Assembly (NCBI RefSeq): GCF_026210795.1
Contig: NC_089435.1
Location: 248,001-312,000 of the forward strand
DNA from: Rhizophagus irregularis
Taxonomy: Eukaryota
Direction of reading: 5' to 3'
DNA: 64,000 nt
Position numbers and translations under genes: made by a program. The stretch's first letter is position 1; each line of letters opens with the position of its first letter. This document shows, one piece after another, positions 619 to 57,984 of this stretch. The notes under the pieces were generated by a model. That model was given only the letters and a program-made list of their open reading frames with translations. It did not search any database and was not told the origin of the DNA.

Positions 619-2360
619 CTAAATATCCATAAATTCTGGATGAGCTTCTAAATCAGGCAATTTCCCCAACATATTTACCCACTCACGTAAAGTACCTTCA
701 TCCAACATGTCATTTGTTCGTTTACAATTTCCTTTAACATCAATATGTTTATTAGTAAAATAATTTACTTCTCCATTATCATCATTTTCGTCAAGTTCCT
801 CATCAAAATAATCTTGTAATGATATTGATGATGATGATTTCTTTTGTTTTAAGCCGGTTAAGTTTGTGGGAACATCTTTTTCTCGTTGCTTATGAGTTGA
901 TGAAAAAGATGAATGTGGCGATGAAAATGATGAATTTGAAGAGCAACTTGATGCATCATTTGATGGTTCAGGTATAATTTTTCGTACAAAAGCACCCGTA
1001 CGCTTAATTGCATCAGTAGCCGCTGGATGAAACAAGAATAATTGAAATACATGTGGCATAGCTCTAAATTATAAAAAAGTAAATAATAATGTTAAAAATA
1101 AATTAACATATGATGATAAAGAATTACTTATGAGATGATGATTACTTACTCATAGACGTTGAGATTAACTTTGGTCGGAGGATAAGATCTTACTCCTGGT
1201 TTATTACATTCAAAAATTTCGGGATGAGTTTTTGCCGCTTTATGAGCCAACAAAATTGATTCGTCTCTTAATCGTTCTCCACTTCCACATGTCTATATAA
1301 AAAAAATATATATTATATTATTATTATTATTATTATTATTAACTGGAAATTATAAGAAAACATCACGATTAAAATATAAAGTACTTACAATAAAAATTTC
1401 ACCCAACCCTCCCAAATCATCAGAAAGAATTGGGGAAACATAAGGAATGGATAAAGCAGAATTATATGCATAATATTGAACTCTTTCTAATCTTTGTTGA
1501 ATATTTTTATAATCCTTTATTGGATTAGCAGGAGAAGCTTTATGTACAAAACCATTTGGTATATAATCAGTTGGACCATTTGAAAATATAGAAGGTAAAG
1601 AATGATAAAGATCAACCCAAGGAGACCAACAAGCAGCACCAGCAGGTTGAGGTAGACCTGCATCCCTTAAAACGAGCATTAAAGATAAAGCCAAACCACC
1701 ACCAGCAGAATCACCCATGATAACAATTTGTTTTGGATTTATAGGATCGAAACCAGCATCAGCAGGAGGTTGTATTAAATAAAGATAAGCAGCCAAAGAA
1801 TCAACAACAGCAGCAGGAAAAGGGGATTGAGGGGCTAATCTATAATCAATACTAAAAGCTCTAGCGGCACTAGCTTTAGCAACTTTTTGTATTAAAAATC
1901 TATGTTGAGCGGCACTACCCATAAAATAAGCACCACCATGTATATATAAAATTACTCTATCAGCGGAAGTTAATTTCTTTCTATTCTTTGCCTCAACCCA
2001 TTCACCTTTAAGAGGGGATTGTTTCATAGGATCTTCTTTCCATCTCCAACCAACTTTTTCTTCTTGACCACTTAATAAACCAGCCATAATATCTTCAGCT
2101 TGAGAACGACAAGTTTCAGGTACAATAGTTTTTTTAACAGATACAGAAGGAGAAGAAGGTATATGAGCTTTTCCAAGAAATTTTTGATGTTTTTCGATCG
2201 TTTTATGTTTACCCCTTTGAAGAAATGAACGAAGCATTGTAACACCTAAATGTAATTTTAAATCCCAATTTGAATCAGGAATATCATTTTTAAAATGTTT
2301 ATATACAGTACTGAGAAACTTTGGTGTTAAAGCAGCAATATCTTTAGGATCCACCGCCAT
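619..2360 (-). CDS. Alpha/beta hydrolase, GDXG (hormone-sensitive-lipase-like) esterase; 3 exons: 2360-1389, 1292-1150, 1063-619
   Basis: Motifs YIHGGAY (oxyanion), GDSAGG (catalytic Ser) and MPHVFQ (catalytic His). Two GTAAGT..TAG introns join the two ORF-track pieces in frame through TCGSGERLRDE. Confidence 0.92.
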
Positions 2361-5300
2361 TTTTTAATTATCAGAAAATAGGACGAAGAATGGTATATAT
2401 AATAAAAAAGAAAAAAGAAGAAGCAATAACTACCAATACATTCAATTATTATTTATAAATTTTTTTTTTGTTTTATAAAATAAATAATAAAAAAAATAAA
2501 TATAAGAAGAAGAAGAAAAAAAAAAAAAAAAAAGACGAAAAAATTATATATATATATATATAATTTTTTTTTTTTTTTTTTTAAAAAAGTATAAAAAAAA
2601 AAGAGAAACAAATGGGGATGAAATATAATTAAAAAAAACGGGACAGTATATATATATAGGAAAAAAACAAATGAAAAAGGAAGTCACACAAATGTAAAGA
2701 TGTTTCAAAACGTGCAACTCATGCGATCTGGTATACTTGCCAAAAACATAATATAAAATTTTAAATTAAAATAATAATATACAGTGATACTCTTGAAGAC
2801 ACAATAAGGGAAATGATATTCATTAATGTTTTTATTTTATTACAGTAAAATGTAGAAGTAATGTAAAAGTAATGTAAGGCTAATATTTCATTTTCAAAAA
2901 AAGAAAACTTTCAAATATTTTAAAATTATTGGAGGAATTAAGATTTAAGATGATTAAAAAGATTTAAGATGAGGAGATAATAGAATATTCGAAAAAAAAA
3001 TCCAATATTTAATATTTCTGCAAGTTCTGTAACTGAAACATAAGATGAAAAAGTAATAAAAAAAAAGCGGAGACAAGGGTAAGTTAAGACTCCTGCTTAG
3101 CCTGATATCTAATATCAAAGAAGGCTTAGTAAATTCCATATTTGCATTCATTCCGAATTTATCGAAAATCATTAAGAAAATTAGGTAATGATTTTTGGTT
3201 TATTTACTTTATAAGTGATTGTAAAGAGTAATTATTCGTGGCGTTAATGTAAAATGTGTCTTTATTCTCTTTATCTCCTTAATGTTTGAAAATTTTCTTC
3301 TTATAAACATTTTCATCAAACAAAAAATAATTGTTAATAAAACAGGTAATTTTTTATTTTATCTTTTTTTTTAAGGGAATAAAAAAGACCGTGAAAATGT
3401 AACATAAACATATTAAAATCACCTTCTTTTTCTATGATAGACTTCTGAAGATCATTTACTATTATTATAATCGTTGATCTCTTAATATGGAAATAGTAAA
3501 AATATCAACACTTAAATGTTTATATTTTGGCGGGTTTTATTGAGGTTGATCCAAATTTCCCGCCAACGTTAGAACGTTGATCATAATATAAAAAATAAGC
3601 AGTACATTAAAAAAATTTAGTCGATTTTTTTTTTAATAAGGACTAAATTAGAAAGTAAAAGACAATGGAACTTTTCATCATCATTCATTTTCAATAAACT
3701 CTTTTTAGTGACTTGTATTATATCATGCATTCACTTATGAAAAAAAAAGAAATTCTTTAAACCGATTATACAATCTATAACGAAAATAGAAGAAATAATA
3801 ATCTTTTTTATTTTGACCATCTCATCTCTTTTCTAAAAAACTTTAATCTTAAAAAAACAATATATCTTTTTTTGATTTTTTTTTTTTTGTACAACTGTTA
3901 CTGTTACATATGAACCACATTACCTACATATTGAACTTTTTATGGTCTTTTTATTAATATCTATATAGTTATTAATATAATATATGTAATACATATACAT
4001 ATACTACTACTATACGTATATATTATATATTATATATATTAATTATATACACATTAATAATTTATTTATTTTGATTTTTATTTATTTGATCACATTTCAA
4101 TAAATCAATCACAAATTACATCATATCAAATGCTCCACGCATATGAATTCCCAAATGGACTTTTATTCTCTATTATGGTAAAATGCATAATTATTATTAA
4201 TTGAATTACACGACATATTATTACTATTAGTACGAAAGAGAATTACAATGATGTTGTAAATTCTTTCTTTGCCCTGTACCCCAATACTCCACATCAAAAT
4301 ATTTATTCCTCCACAACAAAATAAAAAAAAATAAAAAAATAAAAAAAAATAAAATAATAATAAATAATTCCACAATTTTTTTGTAATAACAATAATTTTC
4401 CTTACTTTCTAAAAATTTAATTGTTTCAGATTTTTTAGTCTCTCGGAATTTTATTTAAGTTTGATATACAAAAAACGTGTAATTCGGGGTTGACAGTTCG
4501 AAAAAATTTTAATTTGGAAAATCCCGATGTTTATCCTAATTAGCTTTGGCCTCCCGACAACAGTTCAATGGTAAATATTTATTACTACGCCGATATTCGG
4601 CCGTTATGAATTATGATGACCATGCCATACATAATCTGTTAGTGTTACATTTCTAAAATTATTTACTTAATATGGATAGAAAAATTTCACTATTTATAAT
4701 TAATAATTAAAAAAAAAATGTCTCTCAATATTTTAATAAAGTGGATTTCCTCCTCCCTCTCCTTATAAGTTATAAATATATCTATATTAATAATTTATTT
4801 AATTTATTGTTGTTTCCAGATCCTCTCCTTAAAAAATAACTTTAAACTTTAAAAAAAAAAAACTGGTATTGATGTTAAACAGAAAATCTTCTGTATAACC
4901 ACCACGCATCCTATGGTCAAAGTTCGATGATCTCATGTTAATATCGAGTGATTAATTGTATTTAAAAAAATCATGCCATTTTAAATGTACATTCAATTGA
5001 TCTTAGCATTACTGGTTAAATCCTGTCAATATTATTAATAAATTCCACAAAATTTCTTCTTTCTTATAAATTAATGTCACATATGTCTTATCATTTCCAT
5101 TTATTCTCATTTCCACATGTTTAAAATTTAAATCTACGGGAATCCAAGTATTCAGATCATTACTGCTATTAAACAATCTCGGATAGATTCGGGAGAAATG
5201 GAACGTTTCATGAAAAAATAATGTTCATAAATATGAACATTTATGGAAAGAAGATATGAACATTTGTGAAAGAAGAATATTCATAAATATTAACATTTAT

Positions 5301-8420: not shown

Positions 8421-9368
8421 ATATATAAATTAGATACTTTTTTTTTTTTTTGTAAATCATATAAGATTAATTATATTTTATAATTCAATATTTCAATTGA
8501 ATATATTTTTATATGATGTTTTTTTTTGTAAACTGTGTTTGTATTGTGTTTGACTTTTTTTTGTGTTTGTTTGTGTATGACCTTTTTTTTTGTAAATTGT
8601 GTTTGTATTGTGTTTTTTTAAAAAACCTTTTTTAATTTTTTTTTGTAAATTTTACTTATATAGTTATTTCGGTGAACGAATAATATTTTACCGTTCAGCG
8701 CCAGTTCATGATCATCATTTGAGATACTAAATTGATGTGGTATGAAAGGTGGATTTAATCTCCTGATGCTTAAAGAATGAAGGGGTGACCTAGCCAAATT
8801 AAATATTAAACATAATGTCCGTGTAAATCGTTGACTACATTCAACGAAACTGACCACACTAAAAACGTCAAATGTTGCATCTTGAAACTTAAAATCGTTT
8901 GCATTAAAATCAATTTTCGATATTAGCTGAATCGATTCCAGTTCTCAATATGATAGATATTCAATAAGAAAATCCTGCATAAATTCTTCAACACGATGAT
9001 TCTATCCGAATTATATCAATAACTAATCATTGAACTAGAGTTAGACGCGATCTACAGTGTAACAACCTCAGTTCAAAAGAAACAGAATGACACAACATGT
9101 GTGACTGACTCCACGATCATGTGAATTTTTGAATGAGCTATTTTTTTTTTTTTTTTGATTGTTTTTTCTTGTATACGTTGTCACTGCAGTCTGCAGTGAA
9201 ACTTGTGTGGTAATATGGTAATTTTACTTGGGACCGGGTACTAACTCAAACTAAAGGAGAAGAAAAACCAAAACATATAAATACATGGTTATTATTTTAA
9301 AAAAAATTTCAAATTTTTCATCGATACAATATAAAATATAAACCAACAATTTAAAAATTATTAAAAAC

Positions 9369-9926
9369 ATGGATTATTCTAATTTACCAATGGATCAAAC
9401 TGGAAATAGCTTCATTAATAATACTAATACGATTGCTCCTGCGCCTCAAAATATTACATATGAATTTTATTTTCCTTTACCAAATAATACGCGTATTTAT
9501 CATGTTACTTATACCGAATTAAATTTAACAGAAGTCGCGCAACTCTTAAATAATAGAATTGATTTATCTCACGTTCCTGATCATCGGTTTCCATATCATC
9601 ATAATGTACAACATTCAATTCGGCAAGAAATTGTTCAACAATCTGCCGGTTATCAACAAAACTACATCCCACAACAATCTTTCGATATTCAACCTAATTT
9701 CCAAGAATATTCAGATAATAATGCTTACGATGTATCCTCAATTCCTCTTATTCAACAACCTGTTGATTATCAACAAGACGTCATTCCACAACAATCTTTC
9801 GATACTATGGATATTCAACCCACTTTCCAAGAATATTTAAATAATAATGCTAACGATGCATCTTCGGTTCCTCCAAACAGTTCTGAAGATGGATACAATG
9901 GAGTTCAATTACATCAAAATAATTAA
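9369..9926 (+). CDS. Gln/Asn-rich repeat protein of unknown function, copy 1 (185 aa, uninterrupted)
   Basis: Open ORF starting MDYSNL, with the conserved block EFYFPLPNNTRIYHVTYTELN and QQPVDYQQD/QQSFD repeats. Three other paralogs in the window; TATA-like tataaata upstream. Confidence 0.7.
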   Translation: MDYSNLPMDQTGNSFINNTNTIAPAPQNITYEFYFPLPNNTRIYHVTYTELNLTEVAQLLNNRIDLSHVPDHRFPYHHNVQHSIRQEIVQQSAGYQQNYIPQQSFDIQPNFQEYSDNNAYDVSSIPLIQQPVDYQQDVIPQQSFDTMDIQPTFQEYLNNNANDASSVPPNSSEDGYNGVQLHQNN

Positions 9927-10151
9927 GGCTAAACCCAAATTATAATTTAAGATAAAACTGTAGTATTAAGTATGTCATTATATGCTGTAAGAAATATAAT
10001 AATACTTATGTTATAATTTATAAATTAATTAATATAATTTCAAATATTTTTATGTTTAACTTAAATAAGCTTCTTAGTTTTTTAAGAATGAGTTTGATAG
10101 AATTGCATATTTGATATTATAATTATGTTATTATTATTATTATATCAGTCC

Positions 10152-17475: not shown

Positions 17476-17620
17476 AATGATGTTGATGATGATGATGATG
17501 TTGTTGTTGTTGATGATGATGATGATGATGATGATGTTGTTGATGATGATGATGATGTTGTTGTTGATGATGATGATGATGTTGTTGTTGATGTTGATGA
17601 TGATGTTGTTGTTGAGTTGT
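17476..17620 (-). repeat. (CAT/CAA)n trinucleotide tract encoding poly-His/Gln
   Basis: gat/gtt triplet runs on the plus strand; translates as QQQHHHQHQQQHHHHH... Confidence 0.9.
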
Positions 17621-18704: not shown

Positions 18705-18915
18705 AAAAATCGACGATCATTTTATTACCTGCATACAATATAAATAATATTGTATTTATTTATGAACGCCCTTTAAAAAAAGAAAATATGTTATACAACT
18801 CAAGGTACTATTGCATACTGTATAAAAAAAAATATAAATACATTTGATTTTTTCTTTTAAAAAAATTTAAAATTTTCACCAGTACAATATACAGTATAAA
18901 CTCAACAATTAGAAC

Positions 18916-19763
18916 ATGGATTATTCTAATTTATCAATAGGTCAAACTGGAAATAACTTCATTAATAATTCTAATGATATTGCTCCTGTGTCTCAAAATA
19001 ATACATTTGAATTTTATCTTCCTTTACCAAATGATACGCGTATTTACCATGTTATTTATACTGAATTAAATTCAACAGAAATCGCGCGACTCTTGAATAA
19101 TAGAATTGATTTATCTCATATTCCCAATCATCGACTTCCATATCATTATAATGTACAGTACAACATATAATTCGGCAACAAATCACCATTCCACAACAAT
19201 CTTTCGATACTATGGATGTTCAACCAATTTATCAAGAATATTCTGCTTGCGATGTATCTTTAATTCTTCCTATTCAACAACCTGTTGATTATCAACAAGA
19301 TACTATCCCACAACAATCTTTCGATACTATGGATATTCAACGTAATTTCCAAGAATATTCAGATGATAATACTAACGATGTATCTTCAATTCTTCCTATT
19401 CCTGTTGATTATAAACAAGACACCATCTCACAACAATTCTCCGATAATATAAAATTTGAATTTTATCTTCCTTTACCAAATGATGCACATGTCTATGTTA
19501 CTTATACCGAATTAAATTTAACGGAAATCGCGCAACTCTTAAATAATAGAATTGATTTATCCCACATTCCCGATCATCGACTTCCATATAATTATAAAGT
19601 ACAACATTTAATTTGTCAACAAATTGTTCAACAACCTGTTGATTATCAACAAGATGCCATCCCACAACAATCTTTCGAAGAATATTCAGATAATAGTACT
19701 AACGATGCATCTTCAGTTCCAAACAGTCCTGAAGACGGGTACAATTCAATTACATCAAAATAA
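18916..19763 (+). pseudogene. Gln-rich repeat gene, copy 2 (frameshift/stop near 19165; two conserved blocks)
   Basis: ORFs 18916-19170 and 19212-19763 are consecutive parts of one paralog. Confidence 0.75.
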
Positions 19764-20213
19764 CTAATGCTAAACCCAAATCATAATTTAAGATAAAACT
19801 GTGGTATTAAGCAAGCTTTTTTTTAAGAGTAGGTTTGATAGATTTATATATTATACTAGGAAACGGAAACCGTTGGGGGTCCGGAGTGAGAAAATTTTGT
19901 TAATTACTTTTGCAACATTTCGAATTTAAGGTTAGATAAGAAATGTAGTAATCATAAATATCAAATGTAATAATTGAATGTATACGTTAATAAAATTTGA
20001 GTATTATTTGTAAAATAAAATTTAAATAAGTATATCATACTATTATCATGTAATTAATTATTAACAATTGAAAATTGGTAAAAATAAATTCGTAAGAATA
20101 AATGCATAATTAACCGTTTTTTATCACTAATATTTATTCTAAATACGGTAATCTGGCGTGATGATCATATGCGATGTTCGATTAACAAAAGTAAAATACA
20201 AGCCACTATGGAG

Positions 20214-20677: not shown

Positions 20678-23600
20678 ATGGATAATAAATTCATAAGCCG
20701 AGACACACTTCGAAAGCGTAAAGCTAGAGAGAATGAAACATCTAGTCAACGTGAAACACGCCTTGCAAAGCAACGTGAAATTACGCGGCAAAAAAGAGCA
20801 AGGGAAAATGCAAATGCTGAAGAGCGAGAGGCGCGTGATGCACGTGACAAAGAACGAAAACGCGTAAAGTTAGCAACAGAAACGGACGAACAACGTGAAA
20901 AATGTCTTAGTTACTACCGTGAACGAAGAAAATACCTGAAAAATATTCAAAATACAACGGCCCAAGACTTGAATTCGCAACAAAAAAATCCGCAGCAAAA
21001 GTATCAAGATAGTGGCGCGGACGGCGCAGAAGATGACGGCGCAGAAGATGGCGCAGACACACATACCGATGCTGGTGTACTTGGTGAATTCGAGCGAGAT
21101 TTTCTAAAGAAATTTCGTAACAAAGTTAATAAATTTAAACATTCGCTCTGCACGACGTGCAATGAAAATTTTCCATCAATTGTAATTATAAGGGGGAATG
21201 CCGATGTTGCCATAAAGAAAAGCAGCCAAAAAAATTTTCGAAAGATAACAATATGGACCCAGGCGAAGTACCTGATGAACTTCGTGATCTCACAGAAATT
21301 AAGGAAATGTTGGTTGCGCGAGTATTTCCCGTGATGTCGGTTTATAGACTTCGTGGAGGTCAGCATGGATATCGAGGAAACGTAATCAACTTTCCTCAAG
21401 ATGTCCAAGAATTTGCTTCAAAGCTTCCTAGGCATCCATCGTTATTAGATGTGCTTGTCATATGTCGTCAATCTGCGAGCAATGCGGAAGCGTTTAGGGA
21501 TTTCAAAGTTTGTCGTGATAAGGTCACTCAAGCGTTAATCTGGTTAAAACAAAATAATCGTTACTACGCTGACGTAATCATCGATCATGAAATTCTCCAG
21601 TCTCTGCCAATTGATGGCACAATTGATGACCAACTTCAAGATATTAATGAAGATATTGATTACGACGAAAGTGAGGATGACGTTATTACACGTACCTTCG
21701 TTCCACTTCCACCCTCAGCCAATCGTAAAGATACTGCTATTAGAAACACACTCGATCGAATACAAAATGAAAATCATCACATAATGTGGCCACAAATAAA
21801 TGGAAATCCTGTTAACGAATTCCAGACGTCAGGGTATATAGCATGCGCATTCCTAACCTTATACCCGACTGGAAGTGCAGACCTTCGCGCAGAACGTATT
21901 AGAGATATAAAGCCTGCCGAGTATTTCAGGTACCTTCTTCAATACAAGGACGGAAGATTTGCGCGTTATGCTCGTTGGCGGTATTTCACATTGAATTCCC
22001 AAATGCGTTGGCGGGCACTACAAGAAGGAAAGGTGTACGTTAAGCAAAATCTTACCGATGCGCAAATTACCGTTACAGATATTCAGGAAAGAATTACCCA
22101 AGGCGATAACTATATGGCCAATAGAATCATGCGATTTGGAGAAGGTTTACGTGGATCTCATCAATTTTGGTATGCTCGATGCAATGAATTAAATGATATG
22201 ATTAAGCAGATAGGACCGGATGGCTTAATCTTTTTTACGTTTAGTGCCGCCGATTTGCATTGGCCTGAGCTCCATTAGCTTATGCCATCTAACAGTAATC
22301 GTGAAACTTCAGCCAAACGCTATCACCAAAATATCGTGGATAATCCTCATATCGCGGACTGGTTTTTTCATAAGCGATTTGAAATTTTCTTTAATGACGT
22401 CTTAAAGAAACAATAGGATTTGGAAGATTGGTGGTTTAGGTTCGAATGGCAACATCGCGGCAGTGTTCACCACTGGTAAAAAAATGATTTATCCTACACA
22501 TATCTTACACATATTGGGTACTCAAAATGTAAAAAATCATACACAAATAATACACATATCATACACATATCGGGTACTAATATATATATCATACATATAT
22601 CAGGTACCTGATAGGTATACTATATATATAAATACCCGATATGTGTATGATATGTGTATTATTTGTGTATGATTTTCTACATTTTGAGTACCTGATATAT
22701 GTAAGATATATGTAGGATATGTGTAGGATAGACCATTTTTTTACCAGTGGCACGTGCATGGAATCGGAAAAAGAAAAAATGCACCTACAATAGAATGGAA
22801 GCATATGAAGGAAGATGAGAACAAAATGAATGAAATTATACAATATCTTGACAGTCTCGTTACCACAATAAATCCAGGACTCGATATGCCTGTTCCTAAA
22901 TGGCATCCGTGCCAAAAGAAAAGCAATGAATTAAATGATGACCAGCAAGACTACATCGACTTGATTAATAAATTGCAACGACATACCTGATGTAGTCCTG
23001 CGTACTGTCTTCGTATCAACCGAGAAGGACAACAAATTTGCCGGTTTAGATATCCTAAAGAAATTGTTGAAAGAACATTCGTGCAAGATGATAACAATGG
23101 ACAACCGGAGCTTGTAACGAGAAGGAACGATCAATACATAAATTCACATAGTCGACTTCAATTACAGGGTTGGAGGGCTAATGTGGATTTAAAGCCAATC
23201 CTTAGTATACATGCTGCGCTGCAATACGTTGCAAAATATGCAAGCAAAGCAGAACCGCGATCGTCAGCCTTTTCGGACGTATTAAATCGAATCCTTAGTG
23301 AAAGTCAGCCAGAAGATACGTTACTTGCTCCGGCCCAAAAGCTTTTATTACATAGTGTTGCGGAACAGGACATCTCTGCCCAAGAAACCTGCCATATTCT
23401 TCTCGGCCTTCCTCTTTACCATTCAAGTCAGCAATTTGTCTTCTTGAATCTTAACAAAGAAGCACCAAGATGGATTTGTGGTACTGGGGAAAGTGAAGAA
23501 TCTTATTCTGTTAATAATGATTCGGGGCGAACGGAGAAATCACCTTTGAAAATATATTGGGATCGACCTACCGAACTTGAAGATTTTACACTATTCCGGC

Positions 23601-33039: not shown

Positions 33040-34140
33040 AATATATACTTTCATTTTCGAGGTCCATCTTCTCTCAGCCAAGACTTCTCTTTATAAAATC
33101 TTCTTTTAGACCCTTTTCTTCACGTCTTCCTTTAGGTATGTGGGTTGGAGTGTGGGAGGGTGTGGGAGGGTGTGGGAGTGCGGGTTGGGAGTGTGGGAGT
33201 GTGGGAGTGTGAAAGTGTGGGAGTGCGGGTTGGGAGTGTGGAAGTGGGAGTGTGGGAGTGTGAAAGTATGGATTTGTGTGTGGGTTTGTGTATGTGGTGT
33301 TTCATTTTATTTTTTTTCGTCATCTTTTTTTTAGGTTTATTTCTCTCTGTCTAGGTCTTTTCTTTATTAGATCTTCTTTTAGGCCCTTTTTCTTTACATC
33401 TCTCTTTAGGTATGTGGGTTGGGAGTGTGGGTGGTGTGGTGTGGGAGTGTGGGTTGGGAGTGTGGGTTGGGAGTGCGAGTGGGTGTGGGAGTGTGAGAGT
33501 GTGGTGTGGGAGTGTGAGTTTGGAGTGCGGAGTGTGAGAGTGTGGTGTGGGAGTGCGGGTTGGGAGTGTGGGAGTGTGGGTTGGGGGTGCGGGTGGGTGT
33601 GGGGAGTGCGGGTTGGGAGTGTGGAAGTGGGAGTGTAGGAGTGTGAAAGTATGGATTTGTGTGTGGGTTTGTGTATGTGGTGTTTCATTTTTTTTTTTTC
33701 ATCATCTTTTTTTTAGGTTTATCTTCTCTCTGCCTAGGTCTTCACTTTATTAGATCTTCCTTTAGACCCTTTTTCTTTACGTCTCTCTTTAGGTATGTGG
33801 GTTGGGAGTGTGGGTGGTGTGGGAGTGCGTGGGTGCGGGTTGGGAGTGTGGGTGTGGGAGTGTGGGTGGGTGTGAGGAGTGCGGGTTGGAAGTGTGGGAG
33901 TGTGGGTGGGTGTGAGGAGTGCGGTTGGAAGTGGGAGTGTGGGAGTGTGGGTCGGGAGTGGGTGGGTGTGGGTGTGGATTGGGAGTGTAGGTGGTTGGGA
34001 GTGTAGTGTGGGAGTGTGGAGTGTGTGTGGCTTATTTTTTTTCGTATTCCTTTTTTTTAGGTCTATCTTCTCTCCATCTAGGTTTTCTCTTTATTAGGTC
34101 TTTTTTCTTTTAGGCCTTTTTCTTTACATCTTCCTTTCAT
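33040..34140 (+). repeat. Compound repeat: four pyrimidine-rich ~100-bp blocks separated by (GTGGGAGT)-type G-rich tracts
   Basis: Seen directly; the overlapping ORFs here are low-complexity artefacts. Confidence 0.9.
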
Positions 34141-39285: not shown

Positions 39286-40207
39286 ATGAATCAAACTAAC
39301 TTCGGCATACCTTCAATTATTGACAATAATAATAAAAACTTTCAATACGCTTCAAACTCTGATCCGAATTCAGATACTTCGAATATTAATAACATTAATA
39401 CAACTGCTCCTGCACTTCAAAATTTTACATATGAATTTTATCTTCCTTTACCAAATGATACACGTATTTATCATGTTACTTATACCGAATTAAATTTAAT
39501 AGAAATCGCGCTACTCTTGAATAATAGAATTGATTTATCTCACATTCCCAACCATCGACTTCCGTACCATTATAATGTACAACGTTTAATTAGGCAAGAA
39601 ATTATTCAACAATCTGTTGGCTATCAACAAAACACCATCCCATGACAATCTTTTGATACTATTGATATTCAACCAATTTTCCAAGAGCATCCAGACGACA
39701 ATGCTTACGATGTATCTTCAATTCCTTTTATTCAACAATCTCTCGAATATCAACAAGAAGCCGTCCCACAACAATCTTTTGATAATATAAAATTTGAATT
39801 TTATCTTCCTTTACCAAATGATGTATATATCTATCATGTTACTTATACCGAATTAAATTTAACAGAAATCACGCAACTCTTAAATAATAGAATTGATTTA
39901 TCCTACATTCCTGATCATCGAATCCCATATCATTATAATGTACAACATTTAATTTGGCAACAAATTGTTCGACAACCTGAACCTAATTTTCAAGAATATT
40001 CAGATAATAGTGCTTACGATATATCTCCCATTCAACAACCTGTTGATTATCAACAAGATACCACCTACAACAATCTTTCGATGTTATATAGATATTCAAC
40101 CACTTTTCCAAGAATATTCAAATAATAATACTAACGATGCATCTTCAGTTCCTCCAAACAGTCCTGAAGATGGATACAATGGAGTTCAATCACATCAAAA
40201 TAACTAA
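39286..40207 (+). pseudogene. Gln-rich repeat gene, copy 3 (original start altered, stop at 39643, later frameshifts)
   Basis: Two EFYLPLPND..YHVTYTELN blocks and the family C-terminus PPNSPEDGYNGVQSHQNN. Confidence 0.75.
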
Positions 40208-40349
40208 GTCTAAACCTAAATTATCATTAATTTAAAGTATTAAGATATATGTCATTATATGATTTAAGAAAGATAATTATACATTACAATTTAACATTTC
40301 ATGTTAATATAAATTCAGAATTTATATGTTTCACTTAATAAGCTTTTTA

Positions 40350-42010
40350 TTATATTTATGTTTTTTTTTGATATCGCCTGGGTTTTTTTTTCAAATATGT
40401 CACATGATGTACAATATATAGAGTAAATTTATTAATCGGCTGACGGTTGATTTTTTAACTTAGCTAATTTTTGATCGGTTAAACTTAAAAATTTTATCGC
40501 AAAAAGATATTTAAAAAAAATTTTTTTGCAAACATATTTATTCAAAATAATCGTATCTAATGATATTTTATTTACAAATATTAAAATTTAAGTCACACAT
40601 TTACGATTTTAAAGAAAAAAATCACCGTATTTATTTTTTTAATGAAGTGATATAAATAAAAGAATTAATAACAATAAATAAAAAAGATAAACCGTAAATT
40701 GGTATCCAATCAAAATCTCGACAATCACTTGCACGACTAACACAAGATCGACAACAAAATCTCGACAATCCAAAATCTCGGCAATCCAAAATCCTGACAA
40801 GTCATTATATCGACAATTTTATGATGTGTGTTTCTAATAAAATAATTTTTGCAATATGTAATATTTAGTTTAAATGTGTTATGATTTTGTCGGAATTTTG
40901 ACTTGTCAGGATTTTGACTTGTCAAGATATTGGATTGTCGAGATTTTGTTGTCGGTCTTGTATCAGTCGCTCAAATGATTTTCGAGATTTCGTACCAAAA
41001 CCAAGTAAATTACAATGATCAAGGAGAAAGATGCTAATAAAAAAAATGAAATAGCAATGGTGTAATGGAAAGTAATAGAAGATGAAAGGGAGTAAAAAAG
41101 AGTAATGAGAAGTAATAGGAAACAAAAAAAAGAAATAGGACATGGTGAGAGATGAAAAGGAGTGGCGAGAGACGAAAAGAAGTGATGAGAGACGGAGAGG
41201 AGTGATGGGAGATGAAAAGGAGCGATAAAAGAAGTGATGGGAGACGAAAAGGGAGACGAAAAGGAGGGATGGGAGACGAAATAAGTGTTGGGAAGATGAA
41301 GAGGAGTGATGAGATACGAAAAGGTGCGATGGGAGACGAAAAGAAGTGATGGGAAGATGAAAAGAAGTGATGGGTGACGAAGAGGAGTGATGGGAGACGA
41401 GAAGGAGTGATAAGAGACAAAAAGAAATGATGGTAAGTAAACAGGAGAGAAAAAGAGATAATGGAAAATGAAAAGATGCAATAGAAAATAATGGGAGACG
41501 AAAACTCCCCACTCTCGCTGTGCAATGAAAGTGTCCAGACAAACCGGCATCAAATGACGCCATTCGAACCAAAAGAAATAAAACGAAAAACAAAAAAGAC
41601 AAAGGAAAAAGAAAAGGATGATGAAAAATGATGAGAGACAAAAGTAAAGAAATGATCATGATAGGAGGTTGGGTAATAATAGGAAACCAAGTAAAAAATA
41701 AAATCATAAAGTAAAAAAAATGAAGTTAGTAAGAAATGAAATATAAGATAGAAACGAAATAAAAAAGAATAAATAAAAATATTTTTATTAATTGTAGAAC
41801 CGAAAAAACTAAAATACCAAAAGAAAAAAATGAAATAAAATTAGTAAACCCAAATATGAAAGAGAAACAAATAAAAAAGAATAAAAAAAATGAGTAAGTA
41901 ACGAAACGTAAAGTGAAAAACAACTGAACCTTAATTGCAGAACCGGAAGGACTAAAGGACCTAAAAATAATGAAATAGAGTTAGTAAGACTACAATTGCT
42001 ACATCATTTT
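40350..42010. mobile_element. Unclassified insertion, probably a non-autonomous transposon, containing an inverted-motif cluster and a purine-rich minisatellite
   Basis: Absent from the paralogous cassettes. aaaatctcgacaa/ttgtcgagatttt motifs at 40710-40990; (gatgggagacgaaaagaagt)n at about 41140-41500. Ends approximate. Confidence 0.5.
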
Positions 42011-44289: not shown

Positions 44290-44568
44290 CACTAGTAAAA
44301 AAATGATTTATCCTACACATATCTTACACATATTGGGTACTCAAAATGTAGAAAATCATACATAAATAATACACATATCATACACATATCGGGTACTAAT
44401 ATATATATCATACATATATCAGGTACCTGATAGGTATACTATATATATAAATACCCGATATGTGTATGATATGTGTATTATTTGTGTATGATTTTCTACA
44501 TTTTGAGTACCTGATATATGTAAGATATGTGTAGGATATGTGTAGGATAGACCATTTTTTTACCAGTG
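44290..44568. mobile_element. CACTA-type MITE (279 bp), copy 2
   Basis: Starts CACTA and ends ccagtg; perfect 3-bp TSD gta. Confidence 0.92.
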
Positions 44569-44896
44569 GTAAATGCCTCAAGATGAAATATTTCTTGCAT
44601 CAAAGTCTTATTTTTTTTAATAATATATAAAAAATTGTTCTAGCAAATACTATGTATAAACATTTTTTACTTCGATATTGATACCCCTTATTACATTCCA
44701 TTTTGTGGGCGTGTTTTTCTCATCATGGGTAACAATAGGCATCAGACCACTCAAAAAACTGAGATAAATATACTCTGCGCGTTATCGATAGTCACGTGCA
44801 AAGTGACAAATAGATGTCACAGTTGTCACACAGATATTGCAAGTCACATGATATTAGTAAACCGAGTAACAAATCAGGAATGTTTCTATACATACA

Positions 44897-46203: not shown

Positions 46204-49200
46204 TTAATTTTCATCTGTTTCAATAATTATATAAATAAATTAATTTTCATATAAATAATTTGCAAGATTAATTCTTTTATATATCATAGTACATACCTAG
46301 TGACCCTAAATCCTTAATTATATAATCATTCAAATCTTCACTTACTAGCATTTCATTTGTTTTTACACTAGCTCGTGAATCTTCACTTTCAAGAATTTCA
46401 TTCAATTTTTTACTAGTAAAACCAAGTAAGCGACTTTTATAACATGCTTGTGGATGTGATTCGGTAATAAGATTGTTATACTGCCCAATTGGCGCATTTA
46501 TAAATTCCACAATATTGCTTTTTAATTCTTCATTAGTTTGATCATCATCAGGATGGAAAATCCATTTTTCAATAGTTTTTAATACTTCTTTAGAAGATGG
46601 TCTTTTTGATGAATCTTCATTCCAACATTCTTTCATTAAATCTACATAACATTGTGGAGTATTTTCGATAATTTCAGGACGTTCACCTTTACAAATACTG
46701 AAACTAAGTTGAATATCATGTGCTCTATTATTAAATGGTGGTACCCCAGATGTAAGTTCCCACATAATCATAGAAAAACTATATATATCACTAGCTGGAG
46801 TATAAGATTTGCCTCTTAAAACTTCAGGAGCCATAAATGGCACTACACCATAAATATCATACTTTTTCAAAAATGATTTTACAGGTTGACATAATCCTAA
46901 ATCACTAATATAAATTTTATCACTATACACATCATCATTATGATTTAAAATATTACCATCATGAAAATCACAATGAATAAGATTTTTTTCATGTATATCA
47001 CTAAGTCCAGAAATAATTTCGTACAACATATATAATTTTTGATTCCAATTATTTTTGACTATTCTTGTTAAATTTTCTCTTAAATTGCCTTTATTTGCAT
47101 ACTCCATTACTACCATATATTTTGAAGTATTTGGATCTTCTGTGAATCCATAAACATCTATAATATCACTTGAAGCTGAAACACTTGTATGATATTCCCA
47201 CTATAAATAATAATAATAATTTATTAATATAAATAAATTTTAATTTAAATTAAAAATAGAAAATAATATACTATCATACTTCTTTTAAAAATTCATTTAA
47301 ATTTTCATTTAAATTCTTGTGGCATTTAAGAATTACTTGATTCTTTAACCAAGTAGCTTTATATATAGTACCAAATCCTCCTTCATTAAGATATTCAACA
47401 CTTTCAAATTTGTTATAAGGAATCCATCTTAATTCTTTTTCAAGAATAAAATTATCTATAACTGTATTTCCACTTTTCCCAAATCTATAAATTTAAATAA
47501 TTAAAATTATATATAGATATTATAGATTGTATTATAATTTACACAAAATAAATTATTACTTACTCTAAAATTTAAATATGAATTTAATGTAATACAATAT
47601 AAGTCTTAATTTTTGGATAAATATATACAATAACCTATAATTTACAACTTACCAACTAAAGTAACAGATGTTTTTCAAATGGAAGAATTCAGTTAACAAA
47701 TAAATATTATATAAATATATAATGATACATATACTTACAAGCTAGATCATAAATAATTTTTTTTTAATAAAGAAATTAGTTAGTTTAAATTATATGTAAA
47801 TGTTATAACAATAAGTAATAATAGAATTAAATAAATAACTTATAACTTACGATCTATTTAAATAAAGAAATTAGGTAGTTTAAATTATATGTAAATATTA
47901 TAACAATAAGTAATAATAGAATTAAATAAATAACTTACTCCCTATATTATTTAATAATTTTTTAAATAAAGAAATTAGTTAGTTTAAATTATATGTAAAT
48001 ATTATAACAATAAGTAATAATAGAATTAAATAAATAACTTACTCCCTATATTATTTAATAATTTTTTAAATAAAGAAATTAGTTAGTTTAAATTATATGT
48101 AAATGTTATAACAATAAGTAATAATAGAATTAAATAAATAACTTACACCCTATATTATTTAATAATTTTTTAAATAAAGAAATTAGTTAGTTTAAATTAT
48201 ATGTAAATATTATAACAATAAGTAATAATAGAATTAAATAAATAACTTACCATCTATAAAATAATTTTTTAAATAAAGAAATTAGTTAGTTTAAATTATA
48301 TGTAAATATTATAACAATAAGTAATAATAGAATTAAATAAATAACTTACGAGCTATATTATTTAATAATTTTTTAAATAAAGAAATTAGTTAGTTTAAAT
48401 TATATGTAAATATTAAAACAATAAGTAATAATAGAATTAAATAAATAACTTACTCCCTATATTATTTAATAATTTTTTAAATAAAGAAATTAGTTGTTTA
48501 AATTATATGTAAATATTATAACAATAAGTAATAATAGAATTAAATAAATAACTTACTCCCTATATTATTTAATAATTTTTTAAATAAAGAAATTAGTTAG
48601 TTTAAATTATATGTAAATGTTATAACAATAAGTAATAATAGAATTAAATAAATAACTTACGAACTATATTATTTAATAATTTTTTAAATAAAGAAATTAG
48701 TTAGTTTAAATTATATGTAAATATTATAACAATAAGTAATAATAGAATTAAATAAATAACTTACGAACTATATTATTTAATAATTTTTTAAATAAAGAAA
48801 TTAGTTAGTTTAAATTATATGTAAATATTATAACAATAAGTAATAATAGAATTAAATAAATAACTTACGAACTATATTATTTAATAATTTTTTAAATAAA
48901 GAAATTAGTTAGTTTAAATTATATGTAAATATTATAACAATAAGTAATAATAGAATTAAATAAATAACTTACTCCCTATATTATTTAATAATTTTTTAAA
49001 TAAAGAAATTAGTTAGTTTAAATTATATGTAAATGTTATAACAATAAGTAATAATAGAATTAAATAAATAACTTACACCCTATATTATTTAATAATTTTT
49101 TAAATAAAGAAATTAGTTAGTTTAAATTATATGTAAATATTATAACAATAAGTAATAATAGAATTAAATAAATAACTTACCATCTATAAAATAATTTTTT

Positions 49201-50277
49201 AAATAAAGAAATTAGTTAGTTTAAATTATATGTAAATATTATAACAATAAGTAATAATAGAATTAAATAAATAACTTACTCCCTATATTATTTAATAATT
49301 TTTTAAATAAAGAAATTAGTTAGTTTAAATTATATGTAAATGTTATAACAATAAGTAATAATAGAATTAAATAAATAACTTACGAGCTATATTATTTAAT
49401 AATTTTTTAAATAAAGAAATTAGTTAGTTTAAATTATATGTAAATATTATAACAATAAGTAATAATAGAATTAAATAAATAACTTACCATCTATAAAATA
49501 ATTTTTTAAATAAAGAAATTAGTTAGTTTAAATTATATGTAAATATTATAACAATAAGTAATAATAGAATTAAATAAATAACTTACTCCCTATATTATTT
49601 AATAATTTTTTAAACAAAGAAATTAGTTAGTTTAAATTATATGTAAATGTTATAACAATAAGTAATAATAGAATTAAATAAATAACTTACTCCCTATATT
49701 ATTTAATAATTTTTTAAATAAAGAAATTAGTTAGTTTAAATTATATGTAAATATTATAACAATAAGTAATAATAGAATTAAATAAATAACTTACGAGCTA
49801 TATTATTTAATAATTTTTTAAATAAAGAAATTAGTTAGTTTAAATTATATGTAAATATTATAACAAATAAGTAATAATAGAATTAAATAAATAACTTACC
49901 ATCTATAAAATAATTTTTTAAATAAAGAAATTAGTTAGTTTAAATTATATGTAAATATTATAATGATAAGTAATAATATAATTAAATAAATATCTTACCA
50001 TCTATAAAATAAATTTTTAAATAATGAAATTAGTTAAATTATATAAATAATATAAATATAGATATCATATAACTTACACCCTGTAGTATTATTAATTATT
50101 AATTTGTTAGATATAAAGATAATATAAAAGTATTTACTGTAAATTATATATATTACTTACAATCTAGTTATTTAAATTAAGAATATAATTAGTTGAATAA
50201 TGTAAAATATTGAATTGTTTATAAATAAAAACTTAATATTTCAGCTTGTTTGATATACCTTTAATATGTTGGTCCAT
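46204..50277 (-). CDS. TKL-like Ser/Thr(Tyr) kinase with a micro-exon-encoded N-terminus. Predicted 31 exons, ~405 aa: 50277-50259; 26 x 3-nt exons from 50163-50161 down to 47655-47653; 1-nt exon 47564; 47484-47280; 47200-46297; 46214-46204
   Basis: Kinase motifs GGFGTIYKA, VILK, HCDFHDGN, DLG, PFMAPE and DIYSF are intact. All predicted introns are GT..AG and 76-109 nt. The spliced frame is open: MDQHIKDWYDARRNARNGWILLRRTHGWRNPFEFGKSGNTVIDNFI... Kinase identity is certain; micro-exon usage is predicted. Confidence 0.8.
47742..50040 (-). repeat. Tandem array of ~22 near-identical units, mostly 99-105 bp; each unit is one intron plus a variable 3-nt exon
   Basis: Plus-strand unit: acttac[NNN]cta...aaagaaattagttagtttaaattatatgtaaat(a/g)ttataacaataagtaataatagaattaaataaata. 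NNN is tcc, acc, cat, gag, gaa or gat. Confidence 0.95.
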
Positions 50278-54590: not shown

Positions 54591-56891
54591 AAAAATGTTG
54601 CGAAACATTTTTTTATTAAATTATCTATTAAAAATATTTCGCATTTTTATTAAACTTTTTAAGAAAAATTCATGCGAATTTTTCTTCAACCTGTCAGGTC
54701 AGGTTCAGAGTTCTGGAACCTGTAAAATTATAAATTAATTAAATAAATTAAATTAAACATATTTGGTTTATTCAGCTGATAGATAGATTTTAAAACAAAA
54801 AAAAAAAGAAATGAAATTTCTTTATAAATATGAGTATTGATGAAAGAAAACTTTGAAATTGAATAGATACTATTTTACCTCTTAATCCTAAATTATAGTC
54901 ATCTAATTTTTCTCTTGTTTATTAAAAATTAATGCACAATTAAATGGCTACGGAAAAGCCCAAATCGCAATTTTACTCTAATGATTACACTATTCAATTC
55001 AGCATTCAGTTCCTTTAATATTAAGTATTAATATAAATTAAATTAAATATATATAAATATATATAATTCTGATCCATAATTTGATAATGAACAAGGGCGA
55101 TCATTTTTTGGAAAAATTTACCGGAATCAAAATGATCAGCAAAATTTTAAATCATAGTGATAGTAAAAAAAATGATCGACAAACCACATATTTAATTAGT
55201 AAACGGAAATGCCCGGTGACTGTTATTTAATATATAAATTATCTTGATTTATATTAGGTATTCCGTTTATGGAAGTTACGGAGTTTTTGTTTCATTGATA
55301 ATTATTAGAAATTAGAGATGTGCATGTACAACAGTACATGGCAAAACGTCCAACAATCGTTTAATGCCAGAATATTCAAATATACTTAAAAAGGATCGTC
55401 ATTTGTCGTTTGAGAATTTCTGAATGTAAAATAACCATAATTTGTCGTAGTCAGTCAAAAGAGACCGTCATATTATACATTAAATAAAATTGCATATTGA
55501 TTACATTTTTCTTCTTGATATCTTGTGCAATGTTGAAAGCAATGTGAGTAATTAGCGAAAAAAAATTATTAAGTTCATTTCTGACTGATCGGATTTTTGA
55601 TCAGGGTTTGAGTTAATAATTATTAATTATTATAAAGCTAAACAAGATCATGTCGTTTTTAACTTACTGATATTTTTTAGATAGATTATTATTGCAGATA
55701 TTTTTGACGCATTACGTCATTTGGGTTAAATATCACATATATAGTTTATTTATTATTTTTATATGGAATACAGTTATTGAGATCAATAGAGAATGTTCCA
55801 TTACCTTCTTGGGTGACAAAATTATGCAACTTGATCAATTACATATCCACAAAAAAGTAGAATTTTTGATCGCAATTTAAAAATAAGCAAAAATGAACGT
55901 GTTAATTGTTATTGTTGAAAATTATTTTAATAACATTTTTTGACCGGTTAAACCAATTTTGCGATCAAAATCCTAACAATTATGCAGAAATTGATAGGCA
56001 TAGTATCGCAAAAATTTTACTTTTAAACATATAGGGTTGTAAAATTACATTTTAGGTTGTGTAACTTAATTAATATACAGTAAGTGCTATGTTAAATTTT
56101 ATAGTATTTACAATTTTACATATTTTTCAAATTTTTAAAAAAATTGTCAAAGAATTTTTAATTAGTCCAAGAATTAAGTAGAATATCTCAACAGCTAGTA
56201 ATCAGTAATTCAAAATCATGCCAAATTTTTATACATTATAAATTTAGTTTCATTCTATAAAATATAAAAAATTTTGTTCAATTTGAATCGTTAATTTATA
56301 ACAAGAAATATTATCAATCGCTACACAAAGTATAGTGGGACAATGGAACGATTTGGGAATGAACAGATCATATGATTAATAATTTTGTTTATTTTATTTA
56401 ATTACATACTATATGTATTCAATCTAGGGAAAATAGTTTTTACCAATATATCTGGGATTTCTGGAAAATCATGCGAAACTTTCATTATGTTGATCAACTC
56501 GGTCATCTACTTATAGCGCAGTTTGTAAAACAATCAATCGAACCTTTCATAATGTTGATCAATCTTGCCATGTTTGGTTAACTAAAAACGCCTATCATAC
56601 TAAATATGTATATAACTTGCTTTTTTAGATAATAGGAGGAAAAACTTTAAAGCGGTGACGTTAATTTATTTCTCAGTATGCATAATCTGCATCATGCCGG
56701 CAAAATAATTTATACAAGATGAAAACTAATCCAAATGTGACGTTTAGACGTTACACAACTTTATATATTATCTTGTATATACATAAAGAGAAAAGAAAAA
56801 AGATATATATAAATACGTTGTTATTTTTTCTTTGAAATTTTCACCAGTACACACACAGTATAAACCCAACAATTTAAAAATTATTAGAAAC

Positions 56892-57879
56892 ATGGATTAT
56901 TCTAATTTATCAATGGGTCAAATTAGAAATAACTTCATTAATAATTCTAATGCAATTGCTCCTGCGCCTCAAAATATTACATTTGAATTTTATCTTCCTT
57001 TACCAAATAATACACGTATCTACCATGTTACTTATACTGAATTAAATTCAACGGAAATCGCGCGACTCTTGAATAATAGAATTGATTTATCTCATATTCC
57101 AAATCATCGACTTCCATATCATTATAATGTACAACATTTAATTCGGCAACAAATCACAATCTTTCGATACTATGAATGTTCAACCGATTTACCAAGAATA
57201 TTCGGATAATAATGCTTTCGATTTATCTTTAATTCTTCCTATTCAACAATCTGTTGATTATCAACAAGATGCTATCCCACAACAATCTTTCGATACTATG
57301 GATATTCAACGTAATTTCCAAGAATATTCAGATGATAATGCTGACGATGTATCTTCAATTCTTCCTATTCCTTTTGATTATAAACAAGAAACCACTTCAC
57401 AACAATCTTCCGACAATATAAAATTTGAATTTTATCTTCCTTTACCAAATGATGCACATGTCTATCATGTTACTTATGCCGAATTAAATTCAAAAGAAAT
57501 CGCGCAACTCTTAAATAATAAAATTGATTTATCCCACATACCCGATCATCAACTTCCATATCATAATAATGTACAACATTTAATTTGGCAACAAATTATT
57601 CAACAGCCTGTTGATTATCAACAACAAGATGCTATCCCACAACAATCTTTCGATACTATGTTCCAAGAATATTCAGATAATAGTTCTTACGATATATCTC
57701 CTATTCAACAACCTGTTGATTATCAACAAGACACCACTCTACAACAATCTTTCGATACTATAGATATTCAACCCATTTTCCAAGAATATTCAAATAATAA
57801 TGCTAACGATGCATCTTCAGTTCCCCCAAACAGTCCTGAAGATGGATACAATGGAATTCAATCACATCAAAATAACTAA
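56892..57879 (+). pseudogene. Gln-rich repeat gene, copy 4 (single frameshift near 57155)
   Basis: The ORF from MDYSNL (56892) and the 57172-57879 ORF are consecutive parts of one paralog; two conserved blocks. Confidence 0.75.
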
Positions 57880-57984
57880 GGCTAAACCCAAATTATAATT
57901 TAAGATAAATATGCTGTAAGAAATATAATTATATTTATATGTAAATTAATTAATATAGATTCAATTATTTGTATGTTTAACTTA

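Follow-up and report, generated by a model that had tools for sequence, protein, structure and literature searches.

A tandem array of three-base exons precedes a kinase domain in Rhizophagus irregularis

Here we report that a kinase gene of Rhizophagus irregularis carries, ahead of its kinase exons, an array of 26 exons of three bases each and one exon of a single nucleotide. The gene lies in a 64,000-nucleotide stretch of DNA, which we refer to as the window. All of the tiny exons are probably spliced in, following their order in the DNA, and the encoded tail probably diversifies at the level of DNA, through copying and reshuffling of array units, with stop codons purged.

Results

Layout of the array

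A splice-signal scan of the window returned a single chain, which runs from 50163 to 47564 on the minus strand and consists of 26 AG-NNN-GTAAG units and one AG-N-GTAAG unit (Table 1). No other such chain was found in the window, where isolated three-base matches numbered one and three on the two strands. The one-nucleotide exon at 47564 falls just beyond the range 47653 to 50163 given in an earlier note on this DNA. Array introns measure 76 to 109 nt and have a GC content of 9 to 19%, while the triplet exons contain 39 G or C among their 78 bases (50%), in agreement with the earlier description of GC-rich triplets within AT-rich introns. Within the core of the array, donors and acceptors are identical and uniformly strong, and a branch-like CTAAC motif is found about 40 nt upstream of the acceptor. 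A pure satellite or an assembly artefact was ruled out by the existence of a spliced form and by the ordered differences between units.

Table 1. Coordinates of the array and of the kinase gene in the window.
Feature	Position	Strand	Basis or remark
Upstream exon, coding part (six codons and one base)	50259..50277	-	start codon 50277-50275 and phase-1 donor, both predicted from the frame and paralogue N termini
26 three-base exons, phase 1-1	47653..50163	-	splice-signal scan; introns of 76-109 nt between them
Triplet exons 1-13, high coordinates	50163, 50080, 50001, 49902, 49797, 49693, 49589, 49490, 49386, 49282, 49183, 49079, 48975	-	
Triplet exons 14-26, high coordinates	48871, 48767, 48663, 48559, 48456, 48352, 48253, 48149, 48045, 47941, 47853, 47741, 47655	-	
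First two triplet exons; their introns are older and diverged	50078..50163	-	intron identity to the core intron 73-88%
Core of recent expansion, with about 21 tandem intron-plus-triplet copies	47857..50036	-	period 104, 21.2 copies, 95% matches
Three last triplet exons	47653..47853	-	last two common to the read consensus of other copies
One-nucleotide exon, phase 1 to 2	47564..47564	-	splice-signal scan; in loose ends of three runs
Exon with GKSGN motif and kinase subdomains I-II	47280..47484	-	read cover, breaking off at 47484
Ordinary 79-nt intron	47201..47279	-	spliced joint 47200 to 47280 in RNA
Main kinase exon to stop codon	46277..47200	-	100% identity to P0001; PF07714; predicted protein of 408 aa

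The window holds further repeats. Two 98% identical elements of 287 nt with long terminal inverted arms (22471-22757 and 44290-44576) are likely miniature transposons, and four copies of a dispersed family with internal repeats, 60 to 95% alike (9340-9950, 18887-19830, 39311-40270, and 56863-57940), are possibly a paralogous gene family. Skewed low-complexity repeats are present at 33138-34030 (G/T-rich), 41130-41457 (an A/G-rich 20-mer), and 17477-17605 (a trinucleotide run).

The kinase gene and its public models

The protein of the main exon is 100% identical to the public model P0001, in which the PF07714 kinase domain is detected with an E value of 6.4e-42, and inspection of the exon showed that the HxDxHxGN, DLG, and APE motifs are all intact. 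Judged by its sequence, the gene is a member of the R. irregularis tyrosine-kinase-like kinase family, which is described as expanded in this fungus in the excerpted text of PMC4219462. Its transcription is demonstrated by a spliced RNA contig with a 78-nt stretch identical to the kinase exon. The domain matches of the gene were to kinase families only, with neither NACHT nor ankyrin among them.

P0001 begins three residues ahead of the FGKSGN motif and does not include the array, and two protein searches returned no model that clearly contains the array of this gene. The array is likewise absent as a named feature from all paralogue models of the family that we inspected. Eight of these (P0005, P0017, P0031, P0052, P0123, P0125, P0127, and P0141) have strings rich in Ile, Leu, Gly, and Met directly before an FGKSGN-type motif, and they seem, from such strings, to come from gene finders reading such arrays out of frame, in phase 0. 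Some paralogue models (P0017, P0020, and P0029) have MGQxIxK at the N terminus. This start presumably resembles a lipid-anchor signal, and we take the likely start of the window gene to be without that glycine. When all exons are joined, a single frame runs from the probable start at 50277 into the kinase, for a predicted total of 408 residues. Given this predicted start codon, the N terminus appears, from its composition, to be charged and unlike a signal peptide.

The last part of the array is spliced in phase 1

Splicing was assessed in four sequencing runs (X4, X5, X23, and X24), compared over 46950-47690. The joint of the 79-nt intron was spanned by 9 reads in X23, 10 reads in X24, and one contig in X4. 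At 47500-47599, the depth was zero in all four runs. At 47484, where the kinase exon begins, loose ends were found in three runs, each of which contained the one-nucleotide exon in these ends, and none was found at this position in X5. A 184-nt contig of depth 11 in X4 (record 7) aligned with 0 mismatches over 78 nt and continued into 106 loose letters; the RNA status of this run is a guess, its contig being spliced nonetheless. The 30 loose letters that are visible, out of the 106, all match the prediction without skipping, and they cover the one-nucleotide exon, nine triplets, and two further letters from a tenth triplet.

Because the one-nucleotide exon and the last triplets are attached to the kinase exon in this contig as predicted, phase 1 is fixed, which bears out the earlier claim that the micro-exons are of phase 1-1 and that codons straddle their junctions. 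For the window gene, phase 0 is ruled out by this join in the RNA and by the frame of the kinase, and phase 2 was rejected on account of a stop in the gene's own phase-2 reading. As triplets recur in the array, 27 different exon choices produce the identical 30 letters; with 30 of 106 letters shown and these equivalent choices, use of the exons in order is the simplest reading of the contig, not a proven one. The first 16 triplets are presumably included in the transcript as well.

The polyA runs gave a more mixed picture. In X23, 14 reads break at 47484 into other triplet-like strings with a consensus agreement of 0.68, while the 7 such reads of X24 agree at 0.91; the strings of both runs have the last two triplets and the one-nucleotide exon in common. 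The low agreement in X23 would fit substantial skipping on top of complete splicing, through which one gene would produce many tails and stop-containing products would simply be lost. Every triplet exon preserves the frame, as such skipping would need, and the alternatively spliced Tuber nank genes set a precedent, according to the accessible passages of PMC4986451 and PMC3689799. However, about half of the reads at the X23 and X24 breaks carry variant bases, so the strings likely represent paralogues or alleles, and paralogues also explain a mixed consensus, a measure in which copies, isoforms, and paralogues are blended inseparably. Moreover, the single contig path listed at the junction in X4 is the one expected without skipping, with the proviso that contigs lose rare variants, and the strong, identical splice sites of the core also speak against frequent skipping. 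Altogether, we regard substantial alternative skipping as unlikely.

Junction codons and the outcome of skips

The 26 three-base exons of the array represent nine distinct triplets and start, as previously noted, only with GG (11), AT (7), CT (4), or TT (4). None of the 325 ordered triplet pairs makes a stop, which confirms that no skip among the three-base exons can create one. The sole stop route proposed before, a T-ending exon joined to the one-nucleotide exon, does exist, since each of the five triplets ending in T gives TAA in this context, but one skip is enough to open it: loss of the last triplet (47653-47655) alone results in TAA. Skipping had also been expected to shorten the peptide and to recode a neighbor. 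We found that 12 of the 26 single skips recode, while 14 are plain deletions. The 27 residues made at junctions include six Arg, three Trp, three Asn, and two Gly; calling the peptide Gly-rich was thus an overstatement.

Related arrays in metagenome contigs

Related arrays were collected from metagenome contigs with a pattern of three consecutive triplet exons, which matched at least 118 stretches, with at least 114 loci stored. We kept 57 loci with a GC content below 27.5%, after exclusion of five short-period satellites (L015, L038, L085, L087, and L112). Removal of the near-duplicates L002, L016, L069, and L079 left 53 arrays, which together comprise 415 triplets and 351 neighbor pairs. Loci of higher GC (23 inspected) were treated apart and lie outside all counts. 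They include one group formed by L025, L031, L040, L050, L052, and L091 and a second formed by L070, L100, L101, L102, and L107, both with clear branch-point motifs and introns alike one another; several higher-GC arrays have stops in phase 1 and none in phase 0.

Among the matches listed, about 11 to 12 of the 53 AT-rich arrays carry a related kinase exon, and the position of the array before the kinase is kept in relatives that are about 40 to 60% identical in protein. We infer that these kinase-linked loci come from Glomeromycota. In 5 of the 12 kinase-linked loci, a phase-1 acceptor located 74 to 120 nt past the last triplet leads into the conserved frame, with a phase-0 candidate acceptor in addition in L003. 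A clean array-to-kinase junction was not found in the 7 others examined.

Stops are purged between neighbors but not from skip products

The earlier note had proposed that selection for free combinatorial skipping keeps the alphabet of triplets stop-proof, so that any combination of skips stays open, and the complete absence of stops among the ordered pairs of the window array is in line with such an alphabet. Triplets starting with AA, AG, or GA would then be depleted across related arrays. We found instead that such starts are freely used, in 71 of 415 triplets and 30 of 53 arrays among the matches listed, and that 28 of these 53 arrays have both such starts and T-ending triplets. A stop can be reached by skipping in 19 of the 53 listed arrays, and by a single skip in 12. 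At the 17% rate of the related arrays, an alphabet of nine triplets would lack AA, AG, and GA starts by chance with a P of about 0.18, and 6 of the 19 listed arrays with at least six distinct triplets lack them as well; their absence from the window array does not exceed chance.

The distribution of stops differed strongly between neighboring exons and exons brought together by skips. Among the matches listed, no phase-1 stop occurred in 351 neighbor pairs, compared to 12.7 upon shuffling within arrays, and 0 of 5000 shuffles was as low; as array units are kin by descent, the counts are non-independent and the P values generous. The result was the same with repeated pairs collapsed (0 of 335 in the listed arrays), and a T-ending exon was never followed by an AA, AG, or GA start (0 of 101 against 17 expected among these matches). 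The 12 kinase-linked arrays alone, which provide a weak test, had 0 neighbor stops in 78 pairs against 2.3 (P 0.046). In contrast, stops after one skip showed no depletion (13 of 287 against 10.5 expected among the matches listed), and all non-adjacent pairs of the listed arrays gave 110 stops in 1749, compared to 75 to 86 in shuffles. Neighbor stops are purged and skip stops are not; therefore, selection protects the written order and not the products of skipping. Together with the single skip that gives a stop in the window array itself, these data make an alphabet selected to be stop-proof highly improbable. Because a single skip ends in a stop about 5% of the time among the matches listed, skipping could be common without a stop-proof alphabet or a visible signal, a point in favor of the alternative with many tails per gene.

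The same counts bear on the reading phase of the related arrays. Phase 2 was ruled out by stops in 67 of 351 neighbor pairs among the matches listed. Phase 0 contains one stop triplet in 415 in this set, and stop counts alone cannot fix the phase in arrays unlinked to a kinase.

Units change in their triplets and are probably copied with their introns

Window units 4 to 22 show 0.015 differences per site in introns versus 0.645 in triplets. Eight units with a letter-identical 101-nt intron carry four different triplets, and about five changes in the 3 exon sites, a minimum estimate, versus five in 101 intron sites have a P of 4e-6 under an even rate. In the listed metagenome arrays, the triplet differs in 22 of 33 unit pairs matched by flanks at least 95% identical, a choice of pairs that itself lowers the figure for flank differences. 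Intron ends co-vary with the start of the next triplet, both in the window and in the metagenome arrays listed, which indicates that the copied unit is likely an intron plus the triplet that follows it. Accordingly, at 47939-49693, one intron variant is present in five units with the same triplet after it and four different triplets before it.

These features could also be accommodated by a neutral minisatellite of introns, the spliced-out copies of which would each add a residue to an unconstrained tail, with selection acting against stops only and the peptide having no particular role. The expansion of the core is recent and homogeneous, and the tie between triplet starts and the preceding intron ends is what a few founder units would leave behind. 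Furthermore, among the matches listed, the 53 arrays rarely use starts of GT (2 against 53 expected from base frequencies), TA (1 against 11), or GC (1 against 10). We infer that donor mimics right after the acceptor are avoided, which would limit the alphabet at the level of splicing, without selection on the protein. On the other hand, a neutral tail does not readily explain why variation falls mainly on the three coding bases, or why the array holds its place before the kinase in diverged relatives. In addition, Trp codons created by T-GG joins number 46 against 22.8 in shuffled arrays (related arrays among the matches listed). At twice the shuffled count, they show that the order of triplets matters, although the excess may reflect either selection or copied blocks. 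We consider the neutral alternative decidedly unlikely, more so than substantial skipping.

Discussion

The reading that we favor, and think probable, is that the one-codon exons of phase 1 would be spliced completely and in order to place a short N-terminal peptide on the kinase. Intron-plus-triplet units would be copied and reshuffled by unequal crossing-over or conversion, and selection would remove those arrangements that place a stop between neighbors. Because each codon combines the final base of one triplet with the two opening bases of the triplet that follows, a change of neighbor would mean a new residue. The combinatorics would then act between genes and generations rather than between transcripts, and each kinase paralogue would obtain its own N-terminal peptide. 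The variable recognition or targeting tag suggested before remains plausible to the extent that the exons are spliced and that the peptide differs between paralogues, the role as a tag being itself conjectural. The concentration of variation in coding bases and the analogy with other systems suggest that the peptide may serve members of the expanded family as a docking or recognition tail specific to each paralogue, a proposal less well supported than the mode of splicing and copying. More tentatively still, a large hidden class of mycorrhizal kinases might exist, with a specificity tail of one residue per repeat that is kept diverse by selection for recognition of partners or non-self. The repeat scaffold would in that case be spliced away, and each reshuffling of neighbors would recode a junction. 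We see this broader scenario as possible, though the odds are against it.

The closest known system is that of the codon-sized mini-exons of the NACHT-ankyrin (nank) genes of Tuber melanosporum, which are reported to be alternatively spliced (Iotti et al. 2012, as cited in the accessible passages of PMC4986451, PMC13449251, and PMC3689799). As far as these passages go, the two systems share tens of three-base exons, an expanded fungal signaling family, and a proposed diversification of products. They differ in that the window gene is a tyrosine-kinase-like kinase of Glomeromycota with an N-terminal phase-1 array that ends in a one-nucleotide exon. Alternative splicing is reported for nank in the same passages; for the window gene, one contig is compatible with the path without skipping. 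A nank-like locus is present in the metagenome set: L076 (minus strand) contains an 885-aa NACHT-type and ankyrin frame at 815-3469, followed by at least 10 triplet exons, whose phase-0 reading is open and whose phase-1 reading meets stops.

Runs of very short exons are also known from the Schistosoma MEGs, which, in the excerpted text of bioRxiv 10.1101/2023.06.21.545858, encode small secreted proteins with signal peptides from exons of about 15 bp separated by introns of 0.1 to 5 kb, with verified splice variants. Their exons are mostly multiples of three according to this text, comparable to the 26 frame-preserving exons of the window gene. In contrast to the MEGs, the window exons are 3 nt long, the introns of about 100 nt form tandem copies of one another, and the gene encodes a kinase.

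In the HNWD repeats of Podospora, variation is concentrated at a few hypervariable coding positions. The window units resemble them in being near-identical, with variation at few coding sites (0.015 versus 0.645). In HNWD, however, the part of the repeat that stays constant is translated into a fold, while here it is intronic and the protein receives the variable codon only. The domain matches of the window gene, all to kinase families, include no NLR domain. Fungal NLRs, including HNWD, are described in the accessible part of PMC13449251 as carrying repeats of high internal conservation, with near-identical tandem units and reshuffling at the DNA level. Our literature search, with subscription papers and supplements outside it, turned up no publication that describes arrays of this kind in kinases of mycorrhizal fungi, and the supplements of genome papers could bear on this.

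The locus shows accurate splicing of introns that lie three bases apart, as well as of a one-base exon, and it represents a clear case of intron multiplication by tandem copying. The comparison of stops between neighbors with stops after skips offers a simple way to separate selection at the level of DNA from selection at the level of splicing in any such array. The spliced phase-1 array of single codons recurs in a kinase family. No purpose is known for the kinase expansion of R. irregularis, and the N-terminal region is missed or read wrongly in public gene models. If many paralogues carry different micro-exon tails, these would constitute an overlooked and testable diversity of signaling in a key plant symbiont.
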